From an uncultured Verrucomicrobiae bacterium (lineage in GTDB: Bacteria; Verrucomicrobiota; Verrucomicrobiia; Chthoniobacterales; UBA10450): DNA of 64,000 nt. The stretch spans positions 96,001 to 160,000 of the forward strand of contig CAVTMK010000002.1 of assembly GCA_963735805.1 (NCBI GenBank), written 5' to 3'. Below the pieces are notes generated by a model that did not search any database, was not told the origin of the DNA, and was given only the letters and a program-made list of their open reading frames with translations. This document shows positions 19,415 to 28,794 of this stretch, piece after piece. Position numbers and translations under genes: made by a program. Within the stretch, counting starts at the first letter, position 1, and every line of letters starts with the position of its first letter.

Positions 19415-20194
19415 TTAGTCGCGGATCAGGGGACGTAATTCTTTGTCTGATAACGAACGATAGCGGATTGCCCTACCGGCGTCACGCTCAAGCACTGCCG
19501 CCTCTATTCCCGCAATGGCAAGCTGTTCCTGTCGATGTTTGGTGACGGCAGCTCGCTCTGGTGGTTCCTTTGTATCGCTGGTCTGTAAAGTCATGTGCCC
19601 GATGCTCCACGCGTCGAGCGCCGAGTTCAATGCCGTCTCAAGGTTTGCGTCCGGCGCGTGCCGAGCGCCGAGAAATGTTTCCATTAACTCCCTTGATTGC
19701 TGTGTCCCGCTGAGCGCCGCGAAGTTCTGCCGCGCTTCCGCGAACGTTGCACCATTCGTCGCGATCTCACCGTCATACTCGACGCGTATAAATAAATCGT
19801 CTTCGGGTCGCTCTCCCACTTCAGCGAACAGCATCCGGGCGAGGTACGGCGCGCCGTAGATCTGTTCAAACGCGCTCTTCATCACCGGACTGAGCGAGTA
19901 ATGCACCAGCCGCCGCAGTGAAACATCTGTGGAAGATCGGGTGAATCCTTCGGTGCTGGCCAGTTCGATCGCCGCCATTCGCAAGCGCTCGATATCTCCT
20001 GGATGACCAATCGCGCCCATGGCGATTCGGTCGTAGATCTCAAAAATTTTCTGCCGCGTCTGACCGAGAGTGAGAAACAAAACACCGTCGCGGTAACCGA
20101 GCGCAGCAATCGGGCTGCCCGGAGCAAGTTGCGATTCGATGTACTCGCGGCGATTGGCGATCGCCTCGACCCAACGATACGGTTCTTCAATCAT
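19415..20194 (-). CDS. prcA: 20S proteasome alpha subunit
   Basis: GSPIAALGYRDG, KIFEIYDRI; ATGA overlap with the beta gene. Confidence 0.85.
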   Translation of the reverse strand: MIEEPYRWVEAIANRREYIESQLAPGSPIAALGYRDGVLFLTLGQTRQKIFEIYDRIAMGAIGHPGDIERLRMAAIELASTEGFTRSSTDVSLRRLVHYSLSPVMKSAFEQIYGAPYLARMLFAEVGERPEDDLFIRVEYDGEIATNGATFAEARQNFAALSGTQQSRELMETFLGARHAPDANLETALNSALDAWSIGHMTLQTSDTKEPPERAAVTKHRQEQLAIAGIEAAVLERDAGRAIRYRSLSDKELRPLIRD

Positions 20195-21015
20195 GCAACC
20201 GTTTCCTTGAACACCGCCGCGATTTTAGCTTCAGGCAAAGTCGTGATGCCTTCGCTCGATACAATCTTGATAAGCGGATAAATTTTGCCACTGCGATCTA
20301 CGCCGCCTGTCGATGTGTCGGATTCCGCTGCGGTATCCAATGCGCGCAACGCAACCGTTACCGCTTCTTCTTCGTTCAATTCGTGCAGCGGCTTCGCGCC
20401 CCAATTGTTTTCGTAATAGAGAATGCCGCGGACCGCTGGCGATCCGGACCCCGTGGCCGCGTAATCCGTCACTTCAAATTGCGCTCCCATCGCATCATAA
20501 AAATAAAGGCGCGCCTCCGGCCTCGGATGAGGATTGTAGGTCGCGAAAATTGGCACAACTATTCCCACGCCCTGCATGACGAACCCGAAATTGTCACGCA
20601 ACAATTTGGATAGAGCGCGTACTTTCCCATCGACGCTCATTTCCTGTAGCTGCGTTCGGCGAAAATATTGGAACGAGTGTTCGAGCACGCGCGCCATTTC
20701 CCACGCAGTGGCTGGCACACCAGCAATGGCCATGATCGAATTCCGATCGATTTCCAAAACTTTGTCCGCGCGATCATATACAACGGTATTCCCAGCCGTG
20801 GCGCGGCGGTCGCCTGCTACCAACACGCCTCCGGAAAATTTGAAGGCGAGAATTGTGGTTGCCTCGGTTGGTTGCCAGATTTTTTGCGGGGTTTCCGTTT
20901 GCGGTAGCGGATTCGCAGCAGCCGGGGTCAGCAAACCTCTGCGACGCAACAGCGCAGGAAAATCGCCGGATGCGCCAGAAAAATTCTGGTCAAACGCCAC
21001 CGGGGAGCGCTCCAT
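20191..21015 (-). CDS. prcB: 20S proteasome beta subunit with ~52-aa propeptide
   Basis: TTILAFKFSGGVLVAGDRRATAG, ATGSGS, DTSTGG; TAATG coupling with ubact. Confidence 0.9.
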   Translation of the reverse strand: MERSPVAFDQNFSGASGDFPALLRRRGLLTPAAANPLPQTETPQKIWQPTEATTILAFKFSGGVLVAGDRRATAGNTVVYDRADKVLEIDRNSIMAIAGVPATAWEMARVLEHSFQYFRRTQLQEMSVDGKVRALSKLLRDNFGFVMQGVGIVVPIFATYNPHPRPEARLYFYDAMGAQFEVTDYAATGSGSPAVRGILYYENNWGAKPLHELNEEEAVTVALRALDTAAESDTSTGGVDRSGKIYPLIKIVSSEGITTLPEAKIAAVFKETVA

Positions 21016-21191
21016 TATTGGCCGGTGCGCTGGCGATAGCGCTTGGATTGGTTGGGATCCACCTTGCGCATCTTTTTTAAAAGATCCTTCGTGTCCGGCC
21101 GCGAAATGTCCGGTGAACGTGGACCGCCACCATCGCCTTGTTTTGGACCCCACGGGGCCGGTTCCACCGGCTTCTGAATGCGCTCAGGCAT
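21015..21191 (-). CDS. ubact: Ubiquitin-like/Pup-analog protein UBact (58 aa)
   Basis: Disordered protein ending RYRQRTGQ directly upstream of prcB. Confidence 0.88.
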   Translation of the reverse strand: MPERIQKPVEPAPWGPKQGDGGGPRSPDISRPDTKDLLKKMRKVDPNQSKRYRQRTGQ

Positions 21192-21367
21192 AAAAAAATC
21201 TAAGAGCAAATATTGGAAAGGCAAGCGGCGCGCCGCGTCGTGATTCGTAAGTGGTTCGACGGTTACATCGGATTTCGAATTCAACGATGGAATGCTGGAA
21301 CGATTTAACGGTGGCGAAACCGATGAGGCTTGCCAGATAAATCTGCTGATGGCAAAGTTTTGCCCCG

Positions 21368-24298: not shown

Positions 24299-24502
24299 TG
24301 CGCACTCAACCTCAACGCCCGCGTCATCGCGTCAAGCTAAGTACCCAGCATGCTTTGTGTGCGTGTCCTTCGATGCGCTTCGTACTGCTACTTGATACTG
24401 CTTGACCGGGCCTCTGCCATCAATTTACCTTCCAATTGCCGTGACGCGGTCGTTTCCTCTCGACGCCGCAGCAGCACACACTTTGTTAGATTGTCGAAAA
24501 GG

Positions 24503-26926
24503 GTGAACGCCCAAAGCACGTCCGCGGAGACTGAACCAGATCTTCCGCTTGAGATCGCATACTTATTGCTAATCGACGTTGTTGGTTACTCGAAATTGTT
24601 GGTCAATGAGCAGGTCGAACTGCTGCAGCAACTGAACCGGATCGTGCGGAGCACCGAATGTTTTCGCGCGGCGGAAGCAGTCGGCAAGCTCATCCGGGTG
24701 CCAACGGGCGATGGGATGGCACTTCTTTTCTTTCACAGTCCGGAGGAACCGGTGCGGTGCGCCCTCGAGATCAGCAAAGCGTTAAAGGGTCATTCGCAGA
24801 TCCAGGTACGCATGGGAGTTCACAGTGGTCCAGTCAACCCGGTGAAGGATGTTAACGACCAAACGAATATTGCTGGATCGGGGATCAATGTGGGGCAGCG
24901 GGTGCTGGACTGCGGCGATGCTGGACACATCCTTGTATCGGGTCATGTCGCAGAGGATTTGTCTCAGTATCGACATTGGCAGCCGTATCTAAGCAATCTG
25001 GGCGAGTGCCAGGTAAAGCACGGACTGCGCCTGCACGTGTTTAATCTGTGTAAAGATGGTCTCGGTAATCCGGAGGTTCCTGAGAAACTCAAGCGGCGAA
25101 GATGGACGCAGCAATCCGCCGCGATTCACCCAGTCGGTCCGTCTCGGTGGCCAAAGTTTCTATTGCCAGTCGCTCTAGCTGTGTTCGCCGTCGGGTTGGC
25201 GCTCGCCATTTCAGTCTTTCTTCGTCAGGGAACACATACTGGTAATTACTCGGACGCTACAACATCCATTGCCGAGAAAAGCGTCGCCGTGTTGCCCTTC
25301 GAAAATCTAAGTACGGATCGGGAAAACGCCTTCTTCACCGATGGTGTACAGGATGAAATCCTTACCGACCTCTCCAAAGTCGCGGACCTGAAAGTAATCA
25401 GTCGCACGAGTGTGATGCAGTACAGGAACGCCGCAGCGCGCAACCTCAGGGAGATTGCCCAGCAACTCGGCGTCGCGCACGTGTTAGAAGGAAGTGTGCA
25501 GCGTGCGGGGAACCGTGTCCGCGTAACCGCACAGCTGATTGACGCCAGGACCGACACGCATCTTTGGGCGGAACGGTACGACCGCGATCTAGCGGATGTC
25601 TTCGCCATTCAGAGTGAGATTGCCAAGAAGATCGCGGACCAGCTTCAGGCTAAAATTTCTCCCAGTGAAAAGGCGGCGATCGAGAAGGCACCTACCACCG
25701 ATCTTCTCGCATACGATCTTTATCTGCGCGCCGAGCTACTTTTCGCCGATACAACCGATCCGATTCATGCCAGGGAAAAACTGCCTCAGGCGGCGCAATT
25801 GTTAGATGAAGCGGTAACACGCGACCCGCGCTTCTTACAGGCTTGGTGCCTGCTGTCCAGAGTACATTGCGCCGCTTATTTTAGAGGTCATGACCATAGC
25901 ACGGCCCGTCTCGAGCTGGCCAATGCGGCCGTCCAAACCGCGTTGCGCCTTCAACCGGATGCCGGTGAAGCCCATCTTGCTCTGGCCATTTATTACTACA
26001 ACGGTTTTCGCGATTACCGCCGGGCCCGCAGCGAGCTCGCCTTTGCCAGACGGACATTGCCGAACAACTCCGATGTGTTCTTTTACACCGGCTTGATTGA
26101 TCGCCGCGAAGGTCGTTGGGAAGAAGCGACGCGCGACATGGAGCGCGCTCTTGAGCTGGACCCACGCAACTTCTTTATTTTACAGCAACTGGCTTTGACC
26201 TATCAGCCGCAGCGTCGGTATACCGACGAAGCTCAAACGTATGATCGTGCACTGACGATCATGCCGGCCGATCCCTATACTCGTATATCCAGAGCGTTGG
26301 TTGCCTTGGATTGGCGTGCAGACATCCAACCGTTCCAGACGACGCTGGCTACATTGATCACTGAAAATCCCAACGCTGCGCCCGATTTAGATGCTCCTCT
26401 TTATGCTCTGTGCGAGCGTACTGCGGCCGCCACTGACAGGACGCTGTCAAACTATCCGCGGGTGGGGGTCGTATACAACGGAGTCAACTACCCCCATGCA
26501 TATTGGGAGGGGGTCGTTGCTCGCTGCCAAGGCGATTCAGCCAAAGCGCGCGCTGCCTTTACCGCGGCGCGCAGAGAAGTCGCAAACACAGTGGAACAGC
26601 AGCCTGACTTCGCGGCCGCTCTTAGTGTGCTGGGCATGATCGATGCGGGCCTCGATCGTAAAGAAGAAGCACTAAAGGAAGGTCGACGCGCGTGCGAATT
26701 GTTGCCGGTCTCCAAGGATGCTATCGACGGTGCATCCCTGGCCATTAATCTGGCGCAGATTTACGCCTGGACTGGCGAGAAAGACCGCGCCATCGAGCAG
26801 ATCGCCGCCGTGGAGCGCGTCCCGAACACTCTCAGCTATGGCCTTCTGAAGCTGCATCCTTACTGGGATTCGCTGCGCGGCGATCCCCGCTTCGAAAAAA
26901 TTATCGCTTCTCTCGCGCCGCAGTGA
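24503..26926 (+). CDS. Class III nucleotidyl cyclase-like domain + TM + TolB-like + TPR protein
   Basis: LIDVVGYS, TGDG, RMGVHSGPV; SVAVLPFENLS...LKVISRTS; TPRs; ends LRGDPRFEKII. Start uncertain. Confidence 0.85.
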   Translation: MNAQSTSAETEPDLPLEIAYLLLIDVVGYSKLLVNEQVELLQQLNRIVRSTECFRAAEAVGKLIRVPTGDGMALLFFHSPEEPVRCALEISKALKGHSQIQVRMGVHSGPVNPVKDVNDQTNIAGSGINVGQRVLDCGDAGHILVSGHVAEDLSQYRHWQPYLSNLGECQVKHGLRLHVFNLCKDGLGNPEVPEKLKRRRWTQQSAAIHPVGPSRWPKFLLPVALAVFAVGLALAISVFLRQGTHTGNYSDATTSIAEKSVAVLPFENLSTDRENAFFTDGVQDEILTDLSKVADLKVISRTSVMQYRNAAARNLREIAQQLGVAHVLEGSVQRAGNRVRVTAQLIDARTDTHLWAERYDRDLADVFAIQSEIAKKIADQLQAKISPSEKAAIEKAPTTDLLAYDLYLRAELLFADTTDPIHAREKLPQAAQLLDEAVTRDPRFLQAWCLLSRVHCAAYFRGHDHSTARLELANAAVQTALRLQPDAGEAHLALAIYYYNGFRDYRRARSELAFARRTLPNNSDVFFYTGLIDRREGRWEEATRDMERALELDPRNFFILQQLALTYQPQRRYTDEAQTYDRALTIMPADPYTRISRALVALDWRADIQPFQTTLATLITENPNAAPDLDAPLYALCERTAAATDRTLSNYPRVGVVYNGVNYPHAYWEGVVARCQGDSAKARAAFTAARREVANTVEQQPDFAAALSVLGMIDAGLDRKEEALKEGRRACELLPVSKDAIDGASLAINLAQIYAWTGEKDRAIEQIAAVERVPNTLSYGLLKLHPYWDSLRGDPRFEKIIASLAPQ

Positions 26927-27986
26927 CAGGGAGACCGACTCCGGCAACGTAAAGTACCGACTCGCGGATCCCATCTATCCCCAGGTCCTTTTCGATTTGT
27001 GTGTCCTGCAGCGCCGCCGTGCAAAATGGAGCAAGCCCCAACCAGGTTGCTACCAGACAGAACGTCTGGCACAGGTGCCCCGCATCTAGGAGCACGACGC
27101 GATAAGCCCGAGGGTGGTGATACTTCCACATGGTACGCGGAAACACTGCCGTCATTAAAAATAAAGCAGCCGCTTTTCTGACGAAGTGTTGGCGTGCACA
27201 GTACAGCCATGCCTTTTCGTGTGAGGCGTTCGTGCTGATCGTCTCCAGACGGTGCGCTAACGGATGGTAGTGGTACAGACCTGCTTTCAGACCGTTGACG
27301 CGCAACGCCATTAAATACACTTCGCCCGCGTGCCGGGCACCACCCGACGGGCTGGTTTTATGAAATAACCTCCCAAACCGGGGAGAGTCCCGATAACCGG
27401 TAACACCCCAAACCAGTGAGAGAAGTTGGGATACGGTTTCAAGTGGCACTTTTTTATTCGAGAATCGCCGATAAGTCTTTCTTGCCATCAATACTCGGAC
27501 AAACTCGGAGTCTGGAAAAACGCGCTGTGGTAGCGATTTTCTTTTGGCGCCTCTGACAGTCTGGGAAAATTTAGGCTGCGGTGTCTTCGGTGCGATCGAT
27601 TTCAGCCTGCTGAGACTCCAATTAGTCCGGTCCAGGTACGGTGTATTCTTTGTGGAGAAATGGAAACTTCCTTCAGGCAGCCACGAGGCCCATGCCTGTG
27701 CGATCCGACTGTCGTGCTCTGCTTGGGGGGAGCCTTTCCGAAGGATCAGCCCATATCGGAGCAACTGAGAAAGCGCGGAACGCACACTCGCCTGGGTGTA
27801 ATCGGCAAAATGAGCGAATGTTTCCCGGGACGTTCGCCAACTGTCAAAGAACGAAAGAACTTCGCACGTAATCGGCTTCCCTAAGACGGTCAGACGTTTG
27901 GCGAAATTGTGAAAATGCAGCTGACCGTTCTGCCAGTAAACGAACAAGCACCTGGCTCGTCGTAAGGGGATCGTTTGCTCCCGCAT
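26901..27986 (-). CDS. SagB/ThcOx-family FMN dehydrogenase with N-terminal winged-helix (RRE-like) domain
   Basis: RKTYRRF, KTSPSGGARH, GLYHY, RAYRVVLLDAGHLCQTFCLVAT. Confidence 0.85.
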   Translation of the reverse strand: MREQTIPLRRARCLFVYWQNGQLHFHNFAKRLTVLGKPITCEVLSFFDSWRTSRETFAHFADYTQASVRSALSQLLRYGLILRKGSPQAEHDSRIAQAWASWLPEGSFHFSTKNTPYLDRTNWSLSRLKSIAPKTPQPKFSQTVRGAKRKSLPQRVFPDSEFVRVLMARKTYRRFSNKKVPLETVSQLLSLVWGVTGYRDSPRFGRLFHKTSPSGGARHAGEVYLMALRVNGLKAGLYHYHPLAHRLETISTNASHEKAWLYCARQHFVRKAAALFLMTAVFPRTMWKYHHPRAYRVVLLDAGHLCQTFCLVATWLGLAPFCTAALQDTQIEKDLGIDGIRESVLYVAGVGLPVTAAREKR

Positions 27987-28041
27987 TCGTTTCGATTGAC
28001 GCAATAGAGCTACAGCAAAGCACTAAACTCGTCGTACAACT

Positions 28042-28218
28042 TCACTTCACATGATGCGGATCGCCAGCGATTTGACGAAGACACTCTTCAGCCTCGCACA
28101 CCAGCTTTGAAAGATCTTTTAATGGAGCTCGCTTAGCTTTCTCAAGATCCTTCAGAGCTTTTTTTGCGAGCGCGGTAATTTTCAACTTATTTTTACAAGA
28201 TTTTATATGCTTAGGCAC
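28042..28218 (-). CDS. 58-aa basic helical peptide, candidate RiPP precursor
   Basis: AGGAGGT 7 nt upstream of GTG; MPKHIKSCKNKLKITALAKKALKDLEKAKRAPLKDLSKLVCEAEECLRQIAGDPHHVK; same strand as and upstream of the dehydrogenase. Confidence 0.65.
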   Translation of the reverse strand: MPKHIKSCKNKLKITALAKKALKDLEKAKRAPLKDLSKLVCEAEECLRQIAGDPHHVK

Positions 28219-28413
28219 GGTTGTTACCTCCTGTCCGAGCAACGAAGCTACTCTGGATATCCAGTGCTTCAGAGCTATTCTTGCAGCGTAATCGGTGAGC
28301 TAATTGAATGTCAACATCCATGCTCTTTCACTCAACAATTAATCGCCGCTTTCCATGGATCGCGCCTAACGAAACGAGTCTTGCTCTCAACGACAGTGCG
28401 CTAACCTTGCCAG

Positions 28414-28794
28414 ATGCCTAACGAACCAAATCCACTTTCCGATCGGATTCATATCGAGCAGCTCGAGATTTCTACTCGGATCGGCGTTCCGGAGAAGGAA
28501 CGTTCCACCCCCCAACGAGTAACGGTCAGTATTTCTTTCTGGCCGTATCACGACCAGCGGGACATGGCCGATAAGATCGACAACGCAGTCAATTACTCGA
28601 TTGTTGCTGAAGAAACGAAGAATTTTGTGAGGGATCAAACGACCAGTCTGATCGAGACGCTGGCCGATCGATTGGCAACGCACTTGCTGAAAACTTTCCG
28701 CATTCAAATGGTCACAGTCGAGCTGCGAAAATTTCCTTTGGAAGACGCCAAACACGTCTCTGTAACTGTAACGCGAACTGCGTCGGTGGGTTGA
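28414..28794 (+). CDS. folB: Dihydroneopterin aldolase
   Basis: DRIHIEQL, IGVPEKER..PQ, VNYS, LIETLA, VELRK. Confidence 0.88.
   Translation: MPNEPNPLSDRIHIEQLEISTRIGVPEKERSTPQRVTVSISFWPYHDQRDMADKIDNAVNYSIVAEETKNFVRDQTTSLIETLADRLATHLLKTFRIQMVTVELRKFPLEDAKHVSVTVTRTASVG

Follow-up and report, generated by a model that had tools for sequence, protein, structure and literature searches.

We analyzed a 64,000-nt stretch from an uncultured Verrucomicrobiae bacterium (GenBank assembly GCA_963735805.1, contig CAVTMK010000002.1, positions 96,001 to 160,000; hereafter the window, numbered from its first nucleotide), in which a gene for a 58-aa peptide precedes a gene for a SagB/ThcOx-type dehydrogenase that uses flavin mononucleotide (FMN), and a membrane sensor gene converges on the latter. 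Peptide and enzyme are very probably a real substrate-enzyme pair that acts without a YcaO protein. We favor, with modest confidence, a reading of the whole as a minimal YcaO-independent cassette for a ribosomally synthesized, post-translationally modified peptide (RiPP), whose core would be desaturated and whose product would be a ligand of the sensor. Desaturation of an aromatic residue is the probable reaction, by analogy with characterized enzymes. That the modified peptide, or a proteolytic fragment of it, is the ligand of the TolB_N-TPR sensor is plausible rather than probable, and it is the least secure part of the reading, given that neither an exporter nor a protease accompanies the cassette. 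An earlier sequence-only reading had singled out the peptide and the enzyme; the third gene, which meets the enzyme gene tail to tail, was missing from it.

The precursor gene and its tails

The peptide gene lies on the minus strand at 28042..28218, from a GTG at 28218 to a stop codon at 28044-28042, and its product ends in IAGDPHHVK. A 55-nt spacer (27987..28041, minus strand), conserved in sequence in the clade with D-x-H tails, separates the stop codon from the ATG of the enzyme gene. The sequence-only reading had described this open reading frame (ORF), its distance from the enzyme gene, a perfect Shine-Dalgarno (SD) motif 7 nt before the GTG and a region AT-richer than its neighbors, all of which were borne out: AGGAGGT occupies 28226..28232 of the minus strand (four copies occur in the whole 64 kb, both strands counted), and the ORF has a GC content of 0.424, with one of the 361 177-nt tiles of the window equally low or lower. 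A putative sigma70-like promoter (TTGACA, 18 nt, TACGCT; 28285..28314, minus strand) lies 96 nt 5′ of the peptide start, and 67 of 80 loci had TTGAC within 130 nt 5′ of the peptide, compared with 12 of 328 control windows taken inside enzyme genes; the candidate was absent from the output of a simple promoter scanner. Judging by this layout, one promoter would drive both precursor and enzyme.

On the evidence of its sequence the 58-aa peptide is a real gene, a conclusion that follows from homology and selection and not from its position upstream of the enzyme. The family hidden Markov model, run against 41,358 ORFs of the source genome, matched the peptide ORF and no other. The conserved peptide that had been sought upstream of homologous enzymes was present as homologous ORFs, with a dN/dS of 0.35 (18 disjoint pairs) and most variation at third codon positions. 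A profile search found 94 matching proteins, 92 of them with a D-x-H tail, and in the alignment of 33 D-x-H precursors M1, A21, L36, D53 and H55 were invariant and Pro varied. A single-sequence search of 1.84 billion representatives found two sequences, and the Atlas matches to the peptide, all below 0.9, are at most a lead. Near-identical contigs from RNA libraries (four runs, two studies) span 27914-28124, 28041-28238, 27970-28199 and 28261-28435, a weak hint only, since such libraries may contain DNA and no silent-stretch or DNA control was available. Shares in the RNA runs were small, and that the contigs left the body of the enzyme gene and most of the sensor gene uncovered carries no weight. 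An intergenic hairpin in the spacer was dropped as weak at best: the 28 aligned spacer sequences gave a consensus energy of -0.37 kcal/mol with 0 of 6 compensatory pairs, and Rfam gave no match.

The locus set comprised 110 loci matching the enzyme, including duplicates of one genome. Upstream sequence of 300 nt or more was available for 103 loci, and in 102 of them a same-strand ORF of 30-100 aa ended near the enzyme start; L109, whose peptide is frameshifted, was the exception. As evidence for a gene, this short-upstream-ORF rule was rejected as too loose: with an SD match of 4/6, more than half of the control ORFs triggered it (819 of 1537, 53%), against 98 of 103 cassette loci, and with a match of 5/6, 168 of 1537 did, against 50 of 103. 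Removal of seven rows (frameshifted precursors L006, L029, L031 and L059; duplicates L012, L013 and L030) and collapsing on the last 10 residues left 82 distinct precursors; counts of precursors and tails were taken across kin and overstate independence. The frameshifts of L006, L059 and L109 are possibly sequencing errors. L029 and L031 (genome G041) are a decaying copy, in which the enzyme has internal stops and the precursor is frameshifted, and L014 and L030 (G008:C2:273133 and C3:11459), with an identical precursor and an equal enzyme score on two contigs of one genome, reflect a duplication or an assembly overlap.

The cassette is patchily distributed: it occurred in 18 of 201 genomes of the family and, in the family of G201, in 4 of 251. 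Among other genomes of the phylum, 6 of 400 matched, and at least 5 of these matches were different nitroreductases of 240-290 aa, aligned over the C-terminal part only; the viral contigs searched held no relative. The closest named relatives came from Verrucomicrobia or Candidatus Udaeobacter (72-78% identity). At least 5417 of 8000 candidate proteins belonged to the enzyme family at E ≤ 1e-20, not all necessarily in such cassettes.

Precursors were helical and 37-77 aa long. In the window's peptide, an amphipathic helical leader (approximately residues 11-50) is followed by the tail G52-D53-P54-H55-H56-V57-K58, the predicted core (28045..28065, minus strand), which we placed from tail composition, invariance of D and H, and covariation with enzyme residues D119-R120. 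Across the 82 precursors, F, Y, W or H filled 128 of 656 positions in the last 8 residues (19.5%) vs. 158 of 3899 in the leaders (4.1%; odds ratio 5.7). An aromatic residue occurred within the last 10 residues of 78 precursors, and His was present in 59. C, S and T represented 8.1% of the last 8 residues vs. 10.6% of leaders, and 44 of the 82 tails had none at all. Thus, the Cys/Ser/Thr-rich core of azole RiPPs was not found, and the remark that the window's tail has no Cys/Ser/Thr run extends to the family; from Asp onward, 32 of 36 D[PNHR]H cores likewise had no C, S or T.

D-x-H occurred in 39 of the 82 tails (x = P in 20, N in 11, H in 3, G in 3 and R in 2). In the window's clade, the D and H were invariant and the P was not, and the DPH-type tail that had been predicted to be conserved survives as D-x-H, not as D-P-H-H. 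Tails of other clades consisted of M/T/V/I-P-F/Y/H units, often repeated, or were of WYF, YYH, FHY and SF types; in approximately 10 tails, short aromatic units (MPF, VPF, TPF, IPY, SH) are repeated in tandem. The proposal of a CEAEEC motif with Cys as a site of modification did not survive: the motif is private to the window's peptide, CxxxxC occurred in 1 of 82 precursors and 3 of 94 profile matches, and Cys was missing from 55 of the 82. In L025, L117, L100, L102, L105 and L106, the leader is a Lys/Arg-rich stretch without an amphipathic helix, and the cores are GDPHK or repeated (P)MGVLGKG, the latter with a different sensor paralogue.

The dehydrogenase and the proposed reaction

The enzyme (361 aa; 26901..27986, minus strand, ATG at 27986) was recognized as SagB/ThcOx-type, as the sequence-only reading had it, by TIGR03605 (122.7 bits, cut-off 78.4) and by PF00881, the only domain that Pfam found. 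Its N-terminus had been taken for a RiPP recognition element (RRE), and the structural comparison agreed. Residues 4-95 (27702..27977, minus strand) were predicted to form 3-4 strands and 3 helices (pLDDT 74-94) and superposed on the RREs of TigE, MccB and MibB (Z 11.2, 10.2 and 9.9; rmsd 2.7, 2.5 and 1.7; 81-88 residues), which is the PqqD-like three-strand, three-helix element of RRE-dependent RiPPs. The fold of the enzyme matched BmdC, ThcOx and McbC, and also AlbA (Z 12.0). The FMN motifs and the predicted catalytic pair K288-Y289 (27120..27125, minus strand) were invariant in 91 of 91 aligned homologues, in keeping with the SagB-type FMN dehydrogenases of azole RiPPs; the pair was aligned to McbC Lys201/Tyr202 through 6gos_C, with positions counted by hand. 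In McbC, Lys201/Tyr202 take the alpha proton and the beta hydride passes to FMN, according to the available text of PMC6395948, and this is the chemistry required for alpha,beta-desaturation.

Enzyme and core covaried. All 36 enzymes with D[PNHR]H cores have D119-R120 (27627..27632, minus strand) and none of the 43 others does, which makes these residues candidates for reading a D-x-H core. The pattern takes in the distant pair L025 and L117, and L080, inside the D-x-H clade and with a changed core, lacks D119-R120. In addition, residues 267-268 tracked the x of D-x-H: they read HF in 16 of the 20 cases where x is P, and NF in 9 of the 11 where it is N. This covariation is the best sign that the tail is positioned in the active site. 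A co-fold of enzyme dimer, FMN and peptide scored 0.14 against a mark of 0.32 and weighs neither way.

YcaO (PF02624) was absent from the source genome (94.4% complete), from all 17 family genomes searched that carry the cassette (10 of them with a completeness of 90% or more) and from five and three more of unstated completeness, that is, from 26 genome searches of cassette carriers, 11 of them at 90% completeness or more; 5 of 14 control genomes matched. The absence noted in the 64 kb therefore holds for the whole genome and 25 other searches, and the YcaO expected of an azole RiPP was found neither in the cluster nor in the genome. The claim that the 64 kb holds no protease was not strictly true: 20S proteasome alpha- and beta-like genes and the ubiquitin-like UBact lie at 19415-21200 (minus strand), and no link between them and the cassette was found. 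A single ThiF/MoeB-type gene and a single, weak C39-like match are found at unlinked positions of the genome. The neighbors of the cassette are the cyclase-TPR gene and folB. An ATP-binding cassette (ABC) transporter of the window was rejected as the exporter of the cassette, being matched at no related locus.

In the mechanism that we propose, the RRE would hold the amphipathic helix of the leader, which would fit the predicted fold and the known role of such domains. The C-terminal tail would then enter the FMN site with Arg120 reading Asp53, Lys288/Tyr289 would strip the C-alpha proton and FMN would take the C-beta hydride, as in McbC. The substrate would be an unmodified aromatic residue, as in PflD, and the product an alpha,beta-dehydro residue (-2 Da). 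We infer that the likeliest product here is alpha,beta-dehydroHis at His55 of D-P-H (codon 28056-28054, minus strand), because PflD, of which the closest characterized relative found is a near-copy, forms Z-dehydroPhe without YcaO; dehydroPhe, -Tyr, -Trp or -His may be formed in other clades. The sequence-only reading had the flavoenzyme acting alone with non-azole chemistry. That part gained support, and the near-copy of PflD makes desaturation the leading option among those it offered; modification at Cys and dependence on Pro fell away. An unannotated 177-nt gene thus yields a cheaply testable claim, with two short genes and one expected mass shift, and the family provides a natural substrate series (His, Phe, Tyr and Trp cores) with candidate specificity residues.

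The adjacent sensor and competing explanations

The sensor gene (24503..26926, plus strand) encodes a class III cyclase, one transmembrane helix, TolB_N and TPR regions (the domains by Pfam), and overlaps the 3′ end of the dehydrogenase gene by 26 nt. The GTG at 24503 was placed from relatives (the longest ORF begins at 24350); the hydrophobic helix lies near residues 270-290 in the numbering of the long ORF. A sensor homologue lay directly downstream at 88 of the 97 loci with at least 400 nt available. The other nine comprised four gammaproteobacterial loci whose TolB_N-TPR homologue lies upstream (in L007 this is a kinase-TPR, and a winged helix-turn-helix-kinase-TPR gene lies downstream as well), three loci with a cyclase-TPR gene upstream, and two rows for a single locus in which the enzyme is broken and the sensor lies farther along. 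Three further loci of the family Steroidobacteraceae show the same layout, with His-containing tails. In the genus, all 6 cassette genomes had a member of the close sensor clade (65% identity or more across the last 198 aa), located beside the enzyme, whereas 3 of the 17 genomes without a cassette had one. At L080 and at L098, L100, L102, L105 and L106, a distant TolB_N-TPR paralogue (32-48% identity) takes the same position and the core differs too; the replacements of L080 and L102 have a kinase output. Over the same 50 loci, the sensor tree required 6 changes of core type and the enzyme tree 9 (here as elsewhere, quick trees), which is a hint only. Tandem arrays of TolB_N-TPR sensor paralogues occur in the source genome at G000:C2:449000-455000 and 562000-580000.

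A sensor beside the pair suggests a peptide-signaling system, as far as gene content can indicate. The modified peptide or a fragment of it would act on the TolB_N-TPR membrane sensor, with a cyclase output here and a Ser/Thr kinase output in some relatives. Udaeobacter-group bacteria are among the most abundant in soil, and if the link is true, it provides a peptide-signaling system in them, together with a ligand for their orphan cyclase/kinase-TPR sensors, which number in the dozens. A wider reading, which we consider speculative and unlikely, is that of a one-enzyme RiPP class in which dehydrohistidine or other dehydro-aromatic peptides serve as cell-to-cell signals of soil Verrucomicrobia and other soil bacteria, with core, pocket and sensor co-diverging into signaling dialects with interchangeable cyclase and kinase outputs; if true, the sensor family, which is greatly expanded in these genomes, would have its first ligand.

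Several observations weigh against the favored reading. No exporter or protease is conserved with the cassette, and none of the oriented loci, of which 32 include 3.5 kb or more of downstream sequence, matched the ABC transporter of the window. The source genome has 34 sensor paralogues and adjacency could therefore be inherited; a close sensor is kept without a cassette in G077, G091 and G109, and G182 has a second copy. Three D-x-H loci fall with other core types on the sensor tree, outside the D-x-H sensor clade. The link between D119-R120 and the core rests on approximately three independent evolutionary changes, and in the D-x-H clade Asp53 is as invariant as His55. Four of the 82 tails have no aromatic residue in the last 10 aa, and three of these are G-V-L-G types whose enzymes look intact. 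The distance from leader to aromatic varies in non-DxH tails (offsets +2, +3, +5 and +6), and a fixed register was rejected on this ground. Finally, the tree that joins the family with PflD-like and TIGR04511 enzymes included no azole-forming oxidase.

The paralogues, the sensors without a cassette and the lack of an encoded export route all fit an alternative in which desaturation proceeds as proposed, the sensor is one of many paralogues and was co-inherited, and the product is antimicrobial, metal-binding or has another role; related Bacillus/Priestia cassettes that carry a major facilitator superfamily (MFS) exporter instead of a sensor point the same way. We regard it as a minority possibility, since sensors flank the cassette in three separate lineages at differing positions, the distant paralogues swapped in are again TolB_N-TPR proteins in the same place with a changed core, and the tree counts lean, as a hint, against it. 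A second alternative keeps the peptide as substrate and changes the oxidation, to desaturation of Asp53 or Pro54 or to an oxidative cross-link involving His. It can draw on a clade-invariant D53 that tracks enzyme R120, on the frequency of x-P-aromatic tails (17 of 79) and on the G-V-L-G tails without aromatics, but P stands in only 20 of the 39 D-x-H tails, most non-DxH tails have aromatics and no Asp, most precursors have no Cys, and the characterized relative PflD desaturates Phe; we judge it rather unlikely.

The small protein could instead be a helical partner subunit or regulator, in the manner of AlbB, of an enzyme that oxidizes a small molecule. The mostly helical peptide and the match to AlbA agree with this, as does the requirement of the cyclodipeptide oxidases, also of nitroreductase fold, for a small B subunit (PMC11760959, available text). 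It is nevertheless improbable: an RRE and a Lys-Tyr pair are both present in the enzyme itself, and the tails are hypervariable and sometimes tandemly repeated, like RiPP cores. An ordinary azole pathway with YcaO in trans, to which the TIGR03605 match, the ThcOx/McbC-like fold and the incompleteness of genomes would lend themselves, is very improbable in view of the 26 YcaO searches and of cores without C, S or T.

Comparison with known systems

The novelty of the favored cassette is partial. The sequence-only reading had spoken of an uncharacterized RiPP class, which stands for the cassette; aromatic desaturation by PflD is published (PMC12636437, of which part was available), and a parallel NCBIfam trio is curated. 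Literature searches, whose coverage excluded most subscription journals, found no paper on the peptide/enzyme/sensor cassette, none on dehydroHis in a RiPP and none testing the TIGR04509/TIGR04510/TIGR04511 trio; the available parts of PMC8939145, PMC10783134, PMC13060819 and PMC10880069 held nothing specific to the cassette.

The nitroreductase domain of PflD forms Z-dehydroPhe on a linear precursor without YcaO, and YcaO-free nitroreductases in RiPP clusters are described as rare and uncharacterized, with other dehydroamino acids possible (PMC12636437, in the part available). P0137 agrees almost letter for letter with the PflD sequence in the supplement of that paper, in the part shown and compared by eye. 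It aligned to the window's enzyme at 146 bits, with 36% identity across 71% of the query, and McbC, in a different program, at 57 bits (29% over 45%); the family profile aligned to P0137, the PflD orthologue, over residues 43-351 at 33% identity. A search for longer homologues found 17 proteins, of which 14 were MNIO-nitroreductase fusions and none had a YcaO domain, which is weak evidence of absence. Like PflD/PosD of the Pseudomonas pfl/pos RiPP, the window's enzyme joins an RRE-like region to a homologous nitroreductase with intact FMN and KY motifs, keeps the WKY motif and has no YcaO; the target of PflD/PosD is an aromatic residue close to the C-terminal end of a precursor with a long leader, and the same is proposed here. 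Unlike that system, the cassette has no MNIO, whether fused at the N-terminus or not, no HEXXH partner, no GNAT and no transporter; its leader is of a kind other than NHLP, His takes the place of Phe as the proposed target, and a membrane sensor adjoins.

In the tree, the window's family, PflD-like fusions, TIGR04511 enzymes and Bacillus SagB+MFS enzymes grouped together (95); the first three each formed their own branch, and branches were long. Among the side observations, the Priestia and Bacillus pseudomycoides plasmids (L164:5830-5919 and L165:5738-5890) carry an unannotated peptide of approximately 29 aa ending in EHGETSP(S/T)K, followed by an RRE-SagB enzyme of 33% identity and then by an MFS exporter, a second YcaO-less type. 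P0125 (786 aa, 40% identity to the window's enzyme) is an RRE-SagB enzyme fused to an MFS transporter. On a Rhizobium plasmid (L167:5531-9390), a distant SagB-type gene follows a 113-aa hypothetical gene, with an MFS gene, and on a Sinorhizobium plasmid (L166) another lies in an AMP-binding/B12 radical-SAM-like cluster; no YcaO was annotated in either region shown.

The azoline oxidases ThcOx/CyaGox, McbC, BmdC and SagB share the fold, the FMN site and the Lys-Tyr base, and ThcOx also the RRE. Structural identity to them was 16-22%, and unlike them the cassette has no YcaO or nonribosomal peptide synthetase cyclization partner and its cores are poor in Cys, Ser and Thr. The cyclodipeptide oxidases AlbAB/NdasCDO (PMC11760959) and OxzB (PMC12596934), as far as the available texts describe them, likewise carry out alpha,beta-dehydrogenation of amino-acid residues with a nitroreductase fold, but on diketopiperazines or N-acyl amino acids and not on leader-bearing peptides; the former also need a B subunit and covalent FMN.

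In layout, the nearest parallel is the NCBIfam trio TIGR04509 (NHLP-related peptide), TIGR04510 (putative modification-system cyclase) and TIGR04511 (putative peptide maturation dehydrogenase), which likewise unites a peptide, a YcaO-less SagB-like enzyme and a cyclase-TPR protein. TIGR04511 was the best family match of the enzyme, at 189.2 bits and below the cut-off of 240; E-values were 1.2e-55 for the window's enzyme, 2.2e-59 for the best of 91 family members, and 4e-82 or better for true members. The true TIGR04511 enzymes (L121-L123, 276-323 bits) form a clade separate from the window's family; all three come from the order of G201, and L121 has an NHLP-like precursor upstream with a weak TIGR04509 match. 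None of 33 D-x-H precursors matched TIGR04509 at E ≤ 0.1, the precursor here being a 37-77-aa helical peptide and not NHLP. The neighboring sensor scored 28.9 bits against TIGR04510 and the best protein of the genome 61.9 (cut-off 400), although the cyclase and TPR architecture is present. Judged by these comparisons, the cassette, which falls outside the memberships of the trio, the PflD type and the azole RiPPs, appears to be uncharacterized, and resembles the PflD domain in its working and TIGR04509/TIGR04510/TIGR04511 in its layout.

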